From NCBI RefSeq assembly GCF_055900595.2, contig NZ_CM148325.1: 64,000 nt of DNA, one strand, 5' to 3'. Position numbers and translations under genes: made by a program. The notes beneath the pieces were generated by a model. It saw only the letters and a program-made list of their open reading frames with translations. It did not search any database and had not been told where the DNA came from. This document shows, piece by piece, positions 3,384-43,486 of this stretch (positions within the stretch are counted from its first letter, which is position 1; each line of letters begins with the position of its first letter).

Positions 3384-4370
3384 TTATAGTTTTACGCTAT
3401 CTGCCGGAAAAATCACCCCGGTCTGGCGGCGGATCTCGGTCAGCAGCCTGGCGGTGATACGACTGACCGCCAGCCCTGGATGATCTACCAGATGTTCATC
3501 CACCAGGGTAGCGAACAGCTCTGCTTCGTACAGCATGGTATTAATATGCTGCGGTTGGGTAAGATCCTGCATCTGGCTGCCGCGCGGCACATAGCAAACT
3601 TTCTGGCATTCAGACAGTTTTTCAATCACCAGCGATCCCGCTTCGCCCTGAATCTCACTTGCCAGCACAGAATCACTGACCTTTGAGTGCTGCAAGGTAA
3701 CGCTGAAATCACCGTAATCCATCACCACCACGCCGTGGGCATCCACACCACTTGCCAGCAAACTGGCGGTTGCCTGCACGCTTTTCGGTTCACCAAATAA
3801 CGCCACCGCCGACGCCAGACAGTAAAAGCCGATATCCATAATTGAACCGTTGGAGAATGCCGGATTGAAGGTGTTGGGATTCTCGCCGTCCAGATAACGT
3901 TGATATCGCGAGGAATATTGGCAATAGTTGAAAAAGACTTTACGCAATTTGCCAACTTTCGGCAGTACCTGGCGTAACAAATGGAAATTCGGCAGGCTGG
4001 CGGTTTTAAATGCCTCAAACAGCACCACCTGATTTTCCCGCGCACAGGCAATGGCGGCATCCACTTCCGCCAGATTCGACGCCAGCGGTTTCTCGCAAAT
4101 CACATGAATTTTATGGCTAAGGAAAAGTTGTGTCTGGGAAAAGTGCAGGGCATTCGGGCTGGCAATATACACCGCGTCAATAGCATCACTTTCTGCCATC
4201 GCTTCCAGCGACGTAAACAGATGCTCGACAGAAAAATCATTGGCGAAGTGCTGGGCCTTTTCAAGGCTGCGGGAATAGACAGCGGTTAACTTGTATTTAC
4301 CGCTCTCATGGGCGGCCTCGACGAACTGGCGGGTGATCCAGTTCGTGCCAATCACAGCGAAACGTATCAT
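3384..4370 (-). CDS. ygjR: Gfo/Idh/MocA-family oxidoreductase YgjR
   Basis: ORF 3384..4388; start placed at internal ATG (MIRFAVIGTNWI, Rossmann N-terminus), 328 aa. Confidence 0.85.
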   Translation of the reverse strand: MIRFAVIGTNWITRQFVEAAHESGKYKLTAVYSRSLEKAQHFANDFSVEHLFTSLEAMAESDAIDAVYIASPNALHFSQTQLFLSHKIHVICEKPLASNLAEVDAAIACARENQVVLFEAFKTASLPNFHLLRQVLPKVGKLRKVFFNYCQYSSRYQRYLDGENPNTFNPAFSNGSIMDIGFYCLASAVALFGEPKSVQATASLLASGVDAHGVVVMDYGDFSVTLQHSKVSDSVLASEIQGEAGSLVIEKLSECQKVCYVPRGSQMQDLTQPQHINTMLYEAELFATLVDEHLVDHPGLAVSRITARLLTEIRRQTGVIFPADSVKL

Positions 4371-38178: not shown

Positions 38179-39417
38179 TTAATCAGGCTTTGGACAACGT
38201 TGTTCCTTCCAGCTGGCTACCGCCGCAATCCGCCGTCGGGTCAGCTCTTCGCGAATCTCCACACCTTTAAATCCCGCTTCAACGACGGCTTTTGTCGGCA
38301 CTGACTGTGCCACTTCCCAGGCTTCGCGCAACCAGCGGCCTTGCGGGTAGTCCGCTGATTCAAAACCGGTTCTGCCGCGCACATCAGCCTCGCTGGTCAG
38401 CGCCAGTTGCTCGACACGCTGCGGTTTACGCCAGGCGTCGATGGAATCAAATAGTTTGACGATGGTTTTTGGGTTCAGCATTGGGAAGGTGTGGATGAGA
38501 TCGTGAAACTCAGCCACCAGTCTGGCTAAATCGCGAATTTCATTTGGCACGCGCAGACGCTGGCATAGTTGTTCCACTAACTTCACACCCACCGGGCCAT
38601 GACCATGATGACGCGGCCAAAGTTCTGGCGGCGTCAGTCCTTTACCGAGATCGTGGCATAGCGTTGCGAAACGGACATCGACCTGCGGACTTAGCATCGC
38701 CGCCATTGAGAGCGTCATTAAGGTGTGAATACCGGTGTCGATTTCCGGATGCCACTTGGCAGGGGCCGGAACGCCAAACAGGGCGTCAATTTCCGGGAAT
38801 AAAACGCGCAGTGCGCCGCAATCGCGCAGTACCTGGAAGAACACCTGGGGATTGCGGGTAGTGAGGGCGCTTTCCGTCTCTTTCCACACCCGTTCAGGCG
38901 TCAGGTGTTCCAGTTCACCCGCGTGGGTCATCTCGCGCATCAGCGCCAGAGTTTCATCGGCAATACGAAAACCGAGGTGGGCATAACGCGCAGCAAAACG
39001 CGCCACGCGCAGTACGCGTAACGGATCTTCGCCAAAAGCGGGGGAAACATGGCGCAACAGACGATTTTGCAGATCGCCCAGACCGTTGTACGGGTCGATA
39101 ATCTCGCCGTTATCGTCCTGGGCCAGCGCATTAATGGTCAGATCGCGCCGCTTAAGATCATCTTCCAGCGTGACATCCGGTGCGGCATAGCAGGTAAAAC
39201 CGGTGTAACCGGAACCGGATTTCCGTTCGGTACGTGCCAGCGCATACTCTTCATGCGTTTGCGGATGCAGAAAAACAGGAAAATCGCGGCCTACCTGCTG
39301 GTAGCCCGCGTCGAGCATCTCCTGTGGCGTACTACCGACTACCACCCAATCTCTGTCTTTGACCGGTAGCCCTAACAATGCATCCCGAACAGCACCACCG
39401 ACCAGATAAATCTTCAC
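38179..39417 (-). CDS. cca: tRNA nucleotidyltransferase (CCA-adding enzyme) with HD domain
   Basis: 412 aa, GTG start (plus CAC at 39415-39417), [17 protein letters not shown]-terminus. Confidence 0.93.
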
Positions 39418-39480
39418 GCCATCATCCCTTCGTCAAATACACAATTCCTAATAATAAGACAGTGCAACGAAGAAGGCGAT

Positions 39481-40101
39481 TTAGTTCATCCAGCGATCTT
39501 TACGTTTGCGCGTTGGGATCAGGTGCGGCAGTACCAGACCGAGCAGCAAGCCAAGCCCCAGCACGCCGCCACCATACATAAACCACTGCATGATGATGGT
39601 GCGCTGTTTGTCATCCAGCTGCACGCTGGCGGCATCGACCTTTTTCTGCGCGACAATCAGCTCGTTTTTCAGTTTCTGATTTTCTTCTTTTAACCCGTTG
39701 ATCACGCTGTCGCTCTGCGCCACTTTTTGCTGCATTTCTGCGGTGCGCTGATTCCAGGTGTTATCGATATTGGTGAGCTTATCGGTCAGGGTTTTGACCT
39801 GATTTTCCAGATCTGGCACACGGGAGCGCAGGCTTGGCTCTGTGCTAAGTTGTTTCAACGGGATCCAGGCAGTACGGCCAGAGCTGTCTTTCACCTGGGC
39901 ATAATTGGTGTTGGCGTCAGTTTGTAATAAGGTCACTTCCTCGCCGGCGTTAACCGTGCCCACGAGGCGATAATGGTCTCCCGGACCGCTACGGACCCAG
40001 GTATTCAGTTCGTCAGAAACATAGCGCGTTTCTTCAGCGTGTGAGACGGCAGTGGCGCTAAGCGCGAGTAAAGTTAATCCGATCAGGCGTAATTTTGGCA
40101 T
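39481..40101 (-). CDS. ygiM: membrane-anchored SH3-domain protein YgiM
   Basis: 206 aa with signal/anchor, coiled-coil segment and C-terminal TM helix. Confidence 0.88.
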   Translation of the reverse strand: MPKLRLIGLTLLALSATAVSHAEETRYVSDELNTWVRSGPGDHYRLVGTVNAGEEVTLLQTDANTNYAQVKDSSGRTAWIPLKQLSTEPSLRSRVPDLENQVKTLTDKLTNIDNTWNQRTAEMQQKVAQSDSVINGLKEENQKLKNELIVAQKKVDAASVQLDDKQRTIIMQWFMYGGGVLGLGLLLGLVLPHLIPTRKRKDRWMN

Positions 40102-40443
40102 CAGGCTGTCGTTATTGTCATGGAAAGTGGAACGATAGTAGTGGCATCAGTGTCGCTACGCAAAGCATTCGACATCAATCGGAATCCTCTGTGTCAGGTC
40201 TTGCCACTGCTTCAAACTTTTACGCCCGTCAAATTGCCCGTTGCATGGCAATTTGGCGCAAAATACTATCTACTGACAAAAAAGATCGCATTAAGTTCGC
40301 CGTTCATCGTCACTTATGTGACATAACCGATAAGTAAAGGCCTTGACATCCTCCCCCACCTTCGCGCAAAGCGACTCAGGAGGGGGATTCCCTTGTCAGG
40401 GTAGCAATACGTTGCCGCATTGCCCGGTTCCTCGCTCGACGGC

Positions 40444-41649
40444 TTACGCCGCCTTACGGGCGCGTCCTTTACGGACTGACGGCAATATTTGTCCTGCCGC
40501 CATGACTTCAAAACCTGCTGTTAATATATTGCGAGCGCCGTTTACATCGGCGTTTGCCGTATAGCCGCACGCGGTACAGATAAAGCTCGCCTGCGTCCTG
40601 CGGTTATTTTTCGATGTATGCCCACAACATGCGCATTTCTGACTGGTGTACGCCGGATTAATCGCCAGCACATCACCGCCGCGCCATGCCTGCTTATATT
40701 CGAGCTGGCGGCGCATTTCTGCCCAGCCCTGATCCAGTATCGCCCGGTTAAGACCTGATTTTGCCGCGACGTTGCGCCCCGGCTGGTCTACCGTACCCGC
40801 TGCTGATTTTGACATGTTCGAAACCTTTAAATCCTCAATGACTATCATCGCGTGGTTTTTGCTGATCGTCGTCGTGGTTTTATGAAGGTAATCGCGGCGG
40901 ATGTTTGCGATATGAGAGTGGAAACGGGAAATCTTCGCTTTCTGCTTTTTCCAGTTGGCGGAGAATTTAACCATCCGGGCCAGACGGCGCTGTAAGCGAG
41001 CCAGCTTATCCTGATTTTTTTTAAAGCTGTTTACCGGTTCAAAGACCGTGCCGTCTGAAAGTGTTGCCAGCTTTGTTATACCTGCATCCAGGCCTATTGC
41101 GCTGGTCGATGCGTGAATCGGATCGGTAACAGCTAATTCGACCTGAAAAGACACATACCAGTGTCCGGCATGCTGGCTGATGGTGCAATTTTTAATGACG
41201 CCTTCAATCTTCCGGGACTGACGAAATTTAACCCAGCCCAGTCCTGACGAGAGTTTCACACGGCCATAATCCAGCCCACAATATTTGCTGAAATTGACGA
41301 ACCGGATAGAGTCGCAGCCTTTGGTTTTCTTTTTGAAAACGGGCTTTTCAGCCGTCAGGGATTTATCAAAACAGCGATCCCATGCGCTCCGCAGGTCTTT
41401 CAGTTTCTGCTGGAGGTTGTCAGTGTAACCCTCAGCAAGAAAGGCCAGCTCAGGGAGTTTTTTCCAGCCCGTAAGTCGTTTATTCAGGTCGAAAGCTGAC
41501 GGAATTTTTCCGCCCGCGTCATGAATGCTCAGTGTTTCATTCAGTGCATAGTTCCAGACAAAGCGAGCGCAACCGCACAACTGACGCAACCTTTGCGCCT
41601 GCTGGTCAGTGGGGTAGAGCCTGTATTTATATGCTTTCTGGATTAACAT
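40444..41649 (-). CDS. tnpB: TnpB (OrfB) RuvC-like nuclease, IS605 family
   Basis: 401 aa; N-terminus MLIQKAYKYRLYPT; RuvC D (IGLDAG), E (IVIEDL), D (NADVNGA) residues and CxxC...CxxC zinc finger all present. Confidence 0.9.
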   Translation of the reverse strand: MLIQKAYKYRLYPTDQQAQRLRQLCGCARFVWNYALNETLSIHDAGGKIPSAFDLNKRLTGWKKLPELAFLAEGYTDNLQQKLKDLRSAWDRCFDKSLTAEKPVFKKKTKGCDSIRFVNFSKYCGLDYGRVKLSSGLGWVKFRQSRKIEGVIKNCTISQHAGHWYVSFQVELAVTDPIHASTSAIGLDAGITKLATLSDGTVFEPVNSFKKNQDKLARLQRRLARMVKFSANWKKQKAKISRFHSHIANIRRDYLHKTTTTISKNHAMIVIEDLKVSNMSKSAAGTVDQPGRNVAAKSGLNRAILDQGWAEMRRQLEYKQAWRGGDVLAINPAYTSQKCACCGHTSKNNRRTQASFICTACGYTANADVNGARNILTAGFEVMAAGQILPSVRKGRARKAA

Positions 41650-41715
41650 TTTGCATTCAGTATGTGGTTATTTAGAATGTACAATATATCCACATTTTTT
41701 TGGGAGGATCAATAC

Positions 41716-42114
41716 GTGTGCGAAATCAATCGTTCACGCTATTCAGCTTACCTGTTGCATGTTCACGTTGTTTTTATGACAAAATACCGCCGTCCAGTTT
41801 TTGGTGAATTGCATCATGCAAACATGCGTCAGTATGTAGCGGAGGTATGCGCGGACTTTGGCGCCGAGTTAAAGGAATGTGACGGCGAGGCAGATCATGT
41901 TCACATGCTGATTGAATACCCACCGTTGGTGCAACTCACAAAGCTGGTAAACAGCCTTAAGTCCGTTACCAGTAGGCGGCTGCGGAATGATTTTATTGAT
42001 TTGCGCGCCGCGTATTCAAAGCCCGTACTCTGGTCACGCTCTTATTTCATCGGTTCATGTGGTGGAGCACCGCTGGAAGTTGTGAAAAAGTATATTCAGA
42101 ATCAGCGTGGCTGA
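41716..42114 (+). CDS. tnpA: TnpA Y1 (HuH) transposase, IS200/IS605 family
   Basis: HVHMLIEYPP HuH motif and catalytic Tyr in WSRSYFIGSCGG; start placed at GTG 41716 after GGGAGGA RBS (132 aa); first in-frame ATG is at 41662. Confidence 0.82.
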   Translation: MCEINRSRYSAYLLHVHVVFMTKYRRPVFGELHHANMRQYVAEVCADFGAELKECDGEADHVHMLIEYPPLVQLTKLVNSLKSVTSRRLRNDFIDLRAAYSKPVLWSRSYFIGSCGGAPLEVVKKYIQNQRG

Positions 42115-42184
42115 TAAACTGCGGGCTTAACAGCCCAAATTCCCCTCCCGCCTACGTTGGGGGGGAGTACCCAGTGGAGGAAGG

Positions 42185-43486
42185 ATGGCTCAGGAAATCG
42201 AATTAAAGTTTATTGTTAATCACAGTGCCGTTGAGGCGTTGCGTGACCATCTCAATACGCTGGGCGGCGAGCACCATGACCCCGTGCAGTTGCTGAATAT
42301 TTACTACGAAACGCTGGATAACTGGCTGCGTGGGCACGACATGGGCTTACGTATCCGTGGCGAAAACGGTCGCTATGAGATGACCATGAAAGTTGCAGGA
42401 AGAGTGACAGGCGGCTTACACCAGCGCCCGGAATATAACGTGGCTTTGAGCGAACCGACGCTCGACCTGGCGCAGTTACCGACGGAAGTCTGGCCGAACG
42501 GCGAATTGCCTGCCGATCTCGCTTCCCGCGTACAACCGCTGTTCAGCACCGATTTTTATCGCGAAAAGTGGCTGGTAGAGGTCGATGGTAGCCAAATTGA
42601 AATCGCTCTCGACCAGGGGGAAGTGAAAGCGGGGGAATTTGCTGAGCCTATCTGCGAGCTTGAACTGGAACTGCTTAGCGGCGACACGCGCGCCGTGCTG
42701 AAACTGGCGAACCAACTGGTATCGCAAACCGGATTACGTCAGGGCAGCCTGAGCAAAGCCGCGCGCGGCTATCATCTGGCGCAGGGCAATCCCGCGCGTG
42801 AAATCAAACCGACCACCATTTTGCATGTTGCGGCAAAAGCCGATGTGGAACAGGGGCTGGAAGCGGCGCTCGAGCTGGCGTTAGCGCAATGGCAGTATCA
42901 TGAAGAACTGTGGGTCCGCGGCAACGATGCGGCGAAAGAGCAAGTGCTGGCTGCCATTGGCCTGGTCCGTCATACGCTGATGCTGTTCGGTGGCATTGTG
43001 CCGCGTAAAGCGAGCACTCACTTACGTGACCTGCTGACTCAATGCGAAGCGACCATCGCATCTGCGGTGTCTGCCGTAACGGCGGTCTACTCTACCGAAA
43101 CGGCGATGGCGAAGCTGGCGTTGACCGAATGGCTGGTAAGCAAAGCCTGGCAGCCGTTTTTAGATGCCAAAGCGCAGGGCAAAATCAGCGATTCTTTCAA
43201 ACGCTTTGCCGATATCCATCTTTCCCGCCATGCCGCTGAACTGAAAAGCGTTTTCTGCCAGCCATTAGGCGATCGCTACCGTGACCAATTGCCGCGCCTG
43301 ACGCGTGACATTGACTCAATATTGTTGCTGGCGGGTTACTACGATCCTCTCGTCGCGCAAGCCTGGCTGGAGAACTGGCAGGGACTGCGTCATGCCATTG
43401 CGACCGGGCAACGCATTGAAATTGAACATTTCCGTAATGAGGCAAACAATCAGGAACCGTTCTGGTTGCACAGCGGAAAACGTTAA
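42185..43486 (+). CDS. ygiF: inorganic triphosphatase YgiF (CYTH plus CHAD)
   Basis: 433 aa, N-terminal CYTH EIELKF motif; GGAGG RBS. Confidence 0.9.

Follow-up and report, generated by a model that had tools for sequence, protein, structure and literature searches.

We analysed a 64,000-nucleotide stretch of the Escherichia coli chromosome, hereafter the window (contig NZ_CM148325.1 of RefSeq assembly GCF_055900595.2; position 1 is its first letter). The gene order in the region of interest is cca, ygiM, an insertion, ygiF and glnE. The insertion (40343-42184) is a complete copy of ISEc41, an insertion sequence (IS) of the IS605 group in the IS200/IS605 family, and the top strand of the element is the minus strand of the window. 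ISEc41 encodes the transposase TnpA and the RNA-guided endonuclease TnpB. An initial annotation, made from the DNA letters, had proposed that the guide RNA of TnpB, or omega RNA, is encoded at the 3' end of tnpB and the right end of the element. The analysis below indicates that the minus strand from about 40501 to 40343 very probably encodes the scaffold of this RNA, with the guide at 40342-40327 and CCAT as the target-adjacent motif (TAM). The features of the element are as follows, from its left end to its right flank.

42185-42188, minus strand: CCAT, target of TnpA and predicted TAM of TnpB (on the plus strand ATGG, the ygiF start codon plus one base)
42120-42184, minus strand: left end, with a subterminal hairpin at 42141-42167 and the tetranucleotide GGUA 5' of this hairpin; boundary taken from the empty site
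41662-42114, plus strand: tnpA, Y1 HUH transposase of 150 amino acids, divergent from tnpB
40444-41649, minus strand: tnpB, RNA-guided endonuclease of 401 amino acids
40343-40351, minus strand: 3' tail of the predicted scaffold and right-end terminus GGAUGUCAA, in which TCAA (40343-40346) is the right-end cleavage motif of TnpA
40327-40342, minus strand: predicted 16-nt guide GGCCUUUACUUAUCGG, the first bases past the right end (a 20-nt version would reach 40323)

Both ends of the element are fixed to the base, because the empty site could be compared with the filled one. Alignment of K-12 with the window is unambiguous and base-exact at both ends. It delimits an insert of 1842 bp between ygiM and ygiF. 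The empty site of K-12 reads ...GATAAGTAAAGGCC/ATGGCTCAGG (...AAAGGCC/ATGGCTC, the slash marking the point of insertion), and a target duplication is absent. A megablast search with 39900-42500 matched 5,425 of 5,426 complete E. coli genomes, just 146 of them over the whole stretch and the others over the flanks only. ISEc41 is present in 148 of the 5,426 genomes, with both flanks at the ygiM-ygiF site in 146 of these, and the site is empty in 5,278. Carriers include CFT073, Nissle 1917 and ATCC 25922. The element is found in E. coli as a single copy, at one site in all carriers, and the copies are at least 99.4% identical. RefSeq labels the tnpA product 'ISEc41 family transposase'. The size of the window element (1842 bp plus the 4-bp CCAT) and of its proteins (150 and 401 amino acids) agrees with the descriptors published for ISEc41, a comparison of sizes and end motifs: 1845-1846 bp, a Y1 transposase of 150 amino acids, a TnpB of 401 amino acids, CCAT at the left end, TCAA at the right end and one copy per genome (PMC9956272, Table S1). 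The traits of the IS200/IS605 family are all present, namely no target duplication, insertion 3' of a fixed short motif and no terminal inverted repeats. Subterminal imperfect hairpins are found at both ends on the same (minus) strand, each with a C-rich 5' arm and a G-rich 3' arm. At the same site, 10 complete E. coli genomes (e.g. RM14723, L003 1483-1545) carry a 63-bp remnant, the terminal 24 nt of the left end being fused to the terminal 39 nt of the right end, with CCAT and TCAA kept. This remnant apparently arose through a deletion that joined the C-runs of the two hairpins, and it resembles a miniature PATE-like derivative.

TnpB contains the Pfam domains HTH_OrfB_IS605, OrfB_IS605 and Cas12f1-like_TNB and scores 356 bits with the NCBIfam model guided_TnpB (cutoff 100), in keeping with the WED/REC/RuvC/TNB architecture of such nucleases. 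Its residues 2-379 align to the TnpB of ISDra2 (PDB 8H1J/8BF8) with an E-value of 7e-47. In this alignment the D, E and D residues of RuvC and both CxxC pairs of the zinc finger are kept (GLDAG, IEDL, NADVNG, CACCG..CTACG). Residues 380-401 match the C-terminal tail of ISDra2 TnpB, which is disordered, dispensable and encoded by DNA that overlaps the omega RNA (PMC10097598). This tail is wholly different between the window and most relatives, as fits a dispensable segment. The stop codon of tnpB, TAA, is seen as TTA on the plus strand at 40444-40446, where the initial annotation had placed it. TnpA scores 139.5 bits with the NCBIfam model transpos_IS200 (cutoff 55). The sole promoter-like site found is close to tnpB, at 41712-41683.

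The right terminus was then compared across the family. A protein-guided scan, with one genome per species, gave 36 loci whose TnpB is 46-80% identical to that of the window. They belong to about 20 genera, for example Aeromonas, Xenorhabdus, Yersinia, Morganella, Serratia, Buttiauxella, Edwardsiella, Regiella, Acidithiobacillus and Granulosicoccus. At 34 of the 36 loci, GG(A/G)TGTCAA is found downstream of tnpB (the GGATGTCAA terminus), followed by a flank that is unrelated from locus to locus. The tail GGAUGUCAA is unchanged in 23 of 23 aligned relatives save for one A>G. A blastn search of the tnpB 3' region against plasmids returned 731 records, in which the alignments stop at query position 278/279, corresponding to 40343, and the plasmid copies likewise diverge straight after TCAA. 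The conserved block thus ends at the boundary given by the empty site, and homologous elements end at the same TCAA and not elsewhere. From these alignments, TCAA at 40343-40346 is the family-wide right terminus and the sequence beyond it is flank, as expected of a guide. Since the flank past TCAA differs at each independent insertion, it is guide-like. We adopted the guide length of 16 nt from ISDra2 (PMC10097598); by this analogy the guide would span 40342-40327.

The box proposed initially, 40300-40470, does contain the right end at 40343. Its limits need revision on both sides: the scaffold most likely extends to about 40501, possibly to 40530, and 40300-40326 is native ygiM-ygiF intergenic DNA outside the element. 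This native DNA holds a perfect 5-bp palindrome, GTCAC-TTAT-GTGAC, at 40308-40321 just past the predicted guide; it is also present in the empty site of K-12 and so is not part of the element. Two further observations concern right ends on plasmids. Two related IncHI1B Klebsiella plasmids (L045 2325, L048 2263) have the same right flank GTAGCTGAACATTTCC and different right-end/scaffold variants, pointing to recombination of IS variants or to replacement at a single site. Solo fragments of 50-100 nt, corresponding to the right end and the omega RNA 3' part without tnpB, are carried by many plasmids of the IncI, IncK and IncF types in E. coli, Salmonella and Shigella (L049 2150-2250; H136-H148).

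At the left end, the arms of the hairpin (UCCCC../..GGGGA) are the same as those of the right-end hairpin, and the left ends of relatives align here. CCAT terminates all four independent left-end flanks that run past the element (window, L004, L007, L008), and a collapsed repeat contig (L006) starts with CCAT. In the CCAT group, the tetranucleotide 5' of the left-end hairpin is GGUA or GGGA, and GAUA in L008. More distant sister clades are inserted 3' of TTAC or TTAT, with AAAG 5' of the left-end hairpin in the TTAC clades. In IS608, cleavage sites are recognized through position-by-position pairing of target and tetranucleotide (TTAC:AAAG). If this rule is transposed, GGNA, seen at three of the four left ends, would fit the CCAT target.

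The assignment of CCAT as the TAM uses the same kind of isogenic-locus comparison as that of Wiegand et al. (PMC10705468), here applied to TAM and target together. On the minus strand, the empty site of K-12 reads CCAT/GGCCTTTACTTATCGGTTAT, with the TAM directly abutting the guide match. The approximately 16 nt beyond the right end, which the initial annotation had put forward as the guide, therefore directly follow CCAT in empty sites. Contiguity of TAM and target means that a substrate exists; it does not by itself demonstrate cleavage. The target motif of TnpA was shown to be identical to the TAM of TnpB by Meers et al. (PMC10055086), and on this basis CCAT is the predicted TAM of ISEc41 TnpB.

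The 101 nt from the tnpB stop to the right end (40343-40443) are 61% G+C, as compared with 52% for the whole window. The minus strand of 40343-40501 (159 nt) folds at -77.2 kcal/mol, against -57.2 +/- 4.0 for shuffled sequences (z = -5.0; none of 200 shuffles as good), and a 218-nt version of the region gives z = -4.0. The GC-rich structured region described initially downstream of tnpB is thus borne out. The predicted scaffold comprises the following parts, listed from 5' to 3'.

40430-40501, minus strand: 5' half of the scaffold as predicted from the fold, on DNA that also encodes the C-terminal tail and stop codon of tnpB
40478-40501, minus strand: S1, 5' stem inside the coding region; from the fold
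40490-40493, minus strand: GACA of the S1 loop, which may form a pseudoknot with UGUC at 40345-40348
40464-40476, minus strand: S2, from the fold
40430-40460, minus strand: S3, from the fold, with the tnpB stop codon in its GUAA loop
40426-40438, minus strand: single-stranded motif CGAGCGAGGAACC (family consensus UGAAGCAGGAACC), with GGAACC invariant in all aligned relatives
40403-40424, minus strand: hairpin S4, a 9-bp stem GGCAAUGCG-GCAA-CGUAUUGCU, GNRA-capped
40390-40401, minus strand: short hairpin S5, CCCU-GACA-AGGG
40352-40387, minus strand: terminal hairpin S6, UCCCCC/GGGGGA (6 bp), then CCU/AGG, then an inner 3-4 bp (UCCCCC-U-CCU...AGG-U-GGGGGA)

The two hairpins named in the initial annotation are both real, in another register than the one given. 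Its motifs lie at 40350-40357 (CCTCCCCC), 40379-40386 (GGAGGGGG) and 40404-40415 (GCAATACGTTGC). CCTCCCCC and GGAGGGGG are not exact complements, and the true stem of the C-rich/G-rich hairpin is that of S6 at 40352-40387. What was read as a GCAA-TACG-TTGC hairpin is, from folding and covariation, the 9-bp stem of S4 closed by a GCAA tetraloop at 40403-40424; the TTGC of that reading is this loop seen on the plus strand. S5 was absent from the list.

Conservation of this fold was evaluated in the 96-nt 3' module (40343-40438), by aligning 13 distinct close relatives and imposing the structure predicted for the window. In this alignment 95.6% of the cells are paired, as compared with 41-54% when the partners are slid by 1-3 columns, and changes on both sides are found in 11 of the 25 pairs. 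The covariation score is 0.382, against 0.165 +/- 0.017 for shuffled alignments, and none of 500 shuffles reaches it. Over the full length, 23 relatives outside the subclade of the window give 96.8% paired cells, 11 doubly changed pairs and a score of 0.263 against 0.173 (0 of 500 shuffles). Kinship of the sequences inflates the shuffle test, and the weight rests on the slid controls and on the count of double changes. Clades were analysed separately: MAFFT misaligns the variable stem between clades, so that RNAalifold lost this stem in a joint alignment.

The compensatory changes are distributed over several stems. In S4, 8 of 9 pairs are changed on both sides and 95.5% of the cells are paired; the hairpin is present in every clade with different sequences. 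It is the variable stem and probably the counterpart of stem 3 of the ISDra2 RNA. In S5, 2 of 4 pairs are changed on both sides (AU 5, UA 4, GU 1; CG 11, UA 1). S6, with 95.7% of its cells paired over the 13 close relatives, is nearly invariant within the clade and compensated between clades (GC 12, CG 6, UG 1 at one pair). It is both the subterminal right-end hairpin, the site of TnpA on top-strand single-stranded DNA, and the last stem of the predicted omega RNA, where it corresponds to stem 4 of ISDra2. In S1, 4 of 6 pairs show compensatory changes in relatives, partly at synonymous sites (GCA..CAU versus GCG..CAC). The loop of S1 also contains the motif GGRCA, invariant in the window and in 23 relatives (alignment A3) and 100% pairable with the tail UGUC at -6..-3; the window keeps GGACA although the encoded residue differs. 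A pseudoknot of the 3' tail with an upstream loop is a core feature of the Cas12/TnpB group. As both sides of the pairing are invariant here, no covariation is possible, and a GACA-UGUC pseudoknot, suggested by comparison with ISDra2, is no more than a plausible analogy. RNAalifold predicts an alternative partner, AAUAUUU, just 5' of S1.

Codon usage points to the same region. Among relatives, synonymous-codon identity is about 0.45-0.55 at baseline and rises to 0.65-0.83 in the final ~50 codons of tnpB, which places the onset of RNA constraint some 150-190 nt from the right end. The middle of tnpB shows another such peak (0.62-0.82 versus the baseline of 0.45-0.55), in relatives L005-L026 at alignment columns ~265-300 (RDYLHK...IVIEDL; about 40830-40930 in the window). 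This peak has no relation to the omega RNA region at the 3' end.

A covariance model (R1) was built from the 23 relatives, without the window and its 4 nearest kin. In the 64-kb window it has a single significant match, at 40343-40530 on the minus strand (42.4 bits, E 3.8e-9). A covariance search was among the checks that the initial annotation had called for. Weak matches at 4006-4076 and 3900-3919 (E 0.9 and 2.2) were attributed to chance. The predicted RNA lies on the tnpB strand and overlaps both the 3' end of tnpB and the right end, the position that defines omega RNAs. Overall, the boundary, the conserved and covarying structure, the model match and the intact TnpB all agree with the omega RNA proposed initially, at the level of sequence.

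The mechanism that we propose draws on ISDra2 and on the Geobacillus work for transcription, processing, guide length, cleavage and homing outcome. tnpB would be transcribed from its own promoter, no separate promoter having been found, and the 3' part of the transcript would be bound, and probably trimmed, by TnpB. As the transcript continues past the right end, its last ~16 nt would form the guide. The scaffold would fold into S1-S6, with the UGUC tail possibly pseudoknotted with GACA of the S1 loop. Excision by TnpA would religate the flanks to CCAT/GGCCTTTACTTATCGG, identical to the empty-site E. coli sequence. TnpB and its omega RNA would then read CCAT as the TAM and the following 16 nt as the target, and cut. 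Recombination with an occupied sister copy would restore the element. At the occupied locus, the DNA that matches the guide is preceded by ...GTCAA instead of CCAT and would hence remain uncut.

The 5' part of the scaffold has peculiarities. Between S1 and GGAACC, the window and 4 plasmid copies, which together form a subclade, carry a replaced segment, S2 and S3 being different from those of other relatives. The tnpB stop of the window is located 101 nt before the right end; in most relatives this distance is 43-51 nt. At least 3 other insertion sites, on Klebsiella and E. coli plasmids, hold the same remodelled scaffold; the presence of this variant at several unrelated sites indicates that it has been mobile. 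A degenerate extra copy, AACAGCAGGUUUUGAAGUCAUG, is found just 5' of S1 (40502-40530 in the window), and in a Klebsiella sp. plasmid copy (L042 2300-2335) S1 is repeated in tandem over 18 nt; S1 and its surroundings seem liable to duplication. On the E. coli plasmid pA123_1 (L004 1-2500), a truncated element of the window type immediately adjoins a type IV CRISPR locus (Csf2 gene, 693-bp array).

Several points weigh against an omega RNA made and used at this locus. A sigma-70-like promoter was sought on the minus strand within the 3' end of tnpB and was not found, nor was a terminator found after the guide. Covariance models of Rfam 15 gave no match in 39400-42600 even at E <= 1, in line with the small subset of omega RNAs that the TnpB-associated models of Rfam cover (Meers et al., PMC10055086). 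In the subclade, the 5' scaffold is remodelled: it lacks the CCUG...CAGG helix found in relatives, and it has CGAGG where the family motif is GCAGG. In the window, S1 is moreover flanked by a partial duplication of ~24 nt. S2 and S3 occur in this subclade only, where 5 similar sequences support them, so that the 5' boundary is approximate and less secure than the 3' one. Recent activity is not demonstrated by a single copy at one fixed E. coli site. Lastly, S6, GAAU and TCAA are also required by TnpA on DNA, and their conservation is not specific to RNA.

Some of these points could be accounted for if the locus were a fossil, that is, an omega RNA-derived sequence in an inactive, vertically inherited fixed copy, the RNA being no longer made, bound or competent for cleavage. 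The single copy at one site in all carriers, with at least 99.4% identity, would be expected in that case; the 63-bp deletion remnant in 10 genomes shows decay under way, and the remodelling of the subclade 5' scaffold, with its partial duplication, could be read in the same manner. However, the tnpA and tnpB frames are intact with their catalytic residues, as are both ends, the 3' module fits the family structure with no broken pair in S4-S6, and the same scaffold variant has moved, as seen from the plasmid sites in Klebsiella and E. coli. We therefore regard a fossil as unlikely. Even less is to be said for hairpins that serve solely as single-stranded DNA recognition structures of TnpA, superimposed on the coding constraint of the TnpB tail, with no functional RNA. 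A right end of the IS608 type consists of a hairpin, a guide tetranucleotide and a cleavage site. S6, GAAU 5' of S6 and TCAA match this layout, they are the most invariant positions, and the left end has a similar hairpin. Yet S4, S5, S1 and S2 go beyond the known needs of TnpA and hold most of the compensatory changes. Furthermore, coding does not explain the covariation of S1 at synonymous sites, the structured region of the window is mostly non-coding, and the homologous TnpB of ISDra2 uses exactly this region as its RNA (PMC10097598). An explanation by DNA recognition and coding constraint is highly improbable. Two small open reading frames, at 40314-40511 (minus strand) and 40343-40564 (plus strand), were also considered and rejected; they straddle the element boundary or are antisense to tnpB, and nothing supports them.

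The position of the element relative to ygiF deserves mention. It sits exactly between -1 and the ATG of ygiF, its left end (42176-42188, plus strand) puts GGAGGAAGG right in front of the ATG, and tnpA points the same way as ygiF. Translation of ygiF is probably still possible from a ribosome-binding site provided by the IS. Such a site as a general feature of left ends was rejected, the other CCAT insertions of relatives not being beside annotated start codons. More speculatively, this copy of ISEc41 may have been drawn into host gene control, through the ygiF ribosome-binding site GGAGGAAGG, tnpA reading into ygiF and a terminator-less tnpB/omega RNA transcript directed toward ygiM; separately, the subclade may have a TnpB with a non-T-rich CCAT TAM and a swapped mid-scaffold. 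We hold this proposal to be quite doubtful. If true, host gene control would explain the long persistence at one site, and the swapped mid-scaffold would suggest that the middle of the omega RNA is modular.

With an omega RNA retained as the preferred reading, the guide RNA of ISEc41 would be an ordinary, previously unannotated member of a well-understood system in a catalogued element. A literature search on ISEc41 and ISAs26 returned the names only, in resistance and genomics papers, and no description of the ISEc41 guide RNA was found. The weight of this result for biology at large is small: ISEc41 is already catalogued with published end motifs, and an omega RNA is expected at every intact IS605 tnpB. 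The modest practical gain is an annotation, accurate to the base, of the scaffold, guide and TAM in an element that the widely used strains CFT073, Nissle 1917 and ATCC 25922 carry, together with a covarying structural alignment of an enterobacterial omega RNA family outside Rfam. A candidate TnpB with a predicted CCAT TAM may also interest genome editing, if it is active.

The closest structural reference is ISDra2 of Deinococcus radiodurans (PDB 8H1J, 8BF8/8EXA). Its omega RNA has a 116-nt scaffold with stem 1, a pseudoknot of the stem 1 loop with positions -5..-3, a short stem 2 that surrounds the long and variable stem 3, and a stem 4 with a UUUA loop at -20..-17 (PMC10097598). The two elements have homologous TnpB proteins, an RNA (predicted in ISEc41) on the tnpB strand that covers the dispensable C-terminal tail and the right end, and a guide immediately beyond. 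In both, the tail ends in ...UCAA, a terminal hairpin lies a few nucleotides from the end, the middle stem is variable and a 5' stem loop can pair with the tail. The UUUA loop of ISDra2 stem 4 has a parallel in a sister clade of ISEc41, whose S6 carries this loop some 19-22 nt from the right end. The likeness found between the RNAs is one of layout. The differences are a TAM of TTGAT versus the predicted CCAT, a scaffold of 116 nt versus the predicted 159 nt or so, a tnpA that is divergent in ISEc41, a pseudoknot that is only a candidate there, and a mid-scaffold that differs, and differs again between subclades.

IS608 of Helicobacter pylori shares with ISEc41 the right-end TCAA, GAAU just 5' of the subterminal hairpin and the lack of target duplication. 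With sister clades of the ISEc41 family it also shares insertion 3' of TTAC/TTAT and AAAG 5' of the left-end hairpin. In contrast, the target is CCAT in ISEc41 and its close relatives, with GGUA, GGGA or GAUA 5' of the left-end hairpin, and the genes are divergent in ISEc41 and co-directional in IS608.

As to RNA families, the predicted RNA would belong to the same class as RF03065 and RF02998 (as named in PMC10055086), although no Rfam 15 model matches the ISEc41 locus. Finally, the same biology is proposed for ISGst of Geobacillus stearothermophilus (Meers et al., PMC10055086): the guide is the right flank, the TAM and the TnpA target coincide, and the donor joint left by excision serves as substrate. 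ISGst elements differ by their AT-rich TAMs, are multi-copy and experimentally active, and depend on TnpA in trans for many tnpB-only copies, whereas ISEc41 is autonomous and single-copy.

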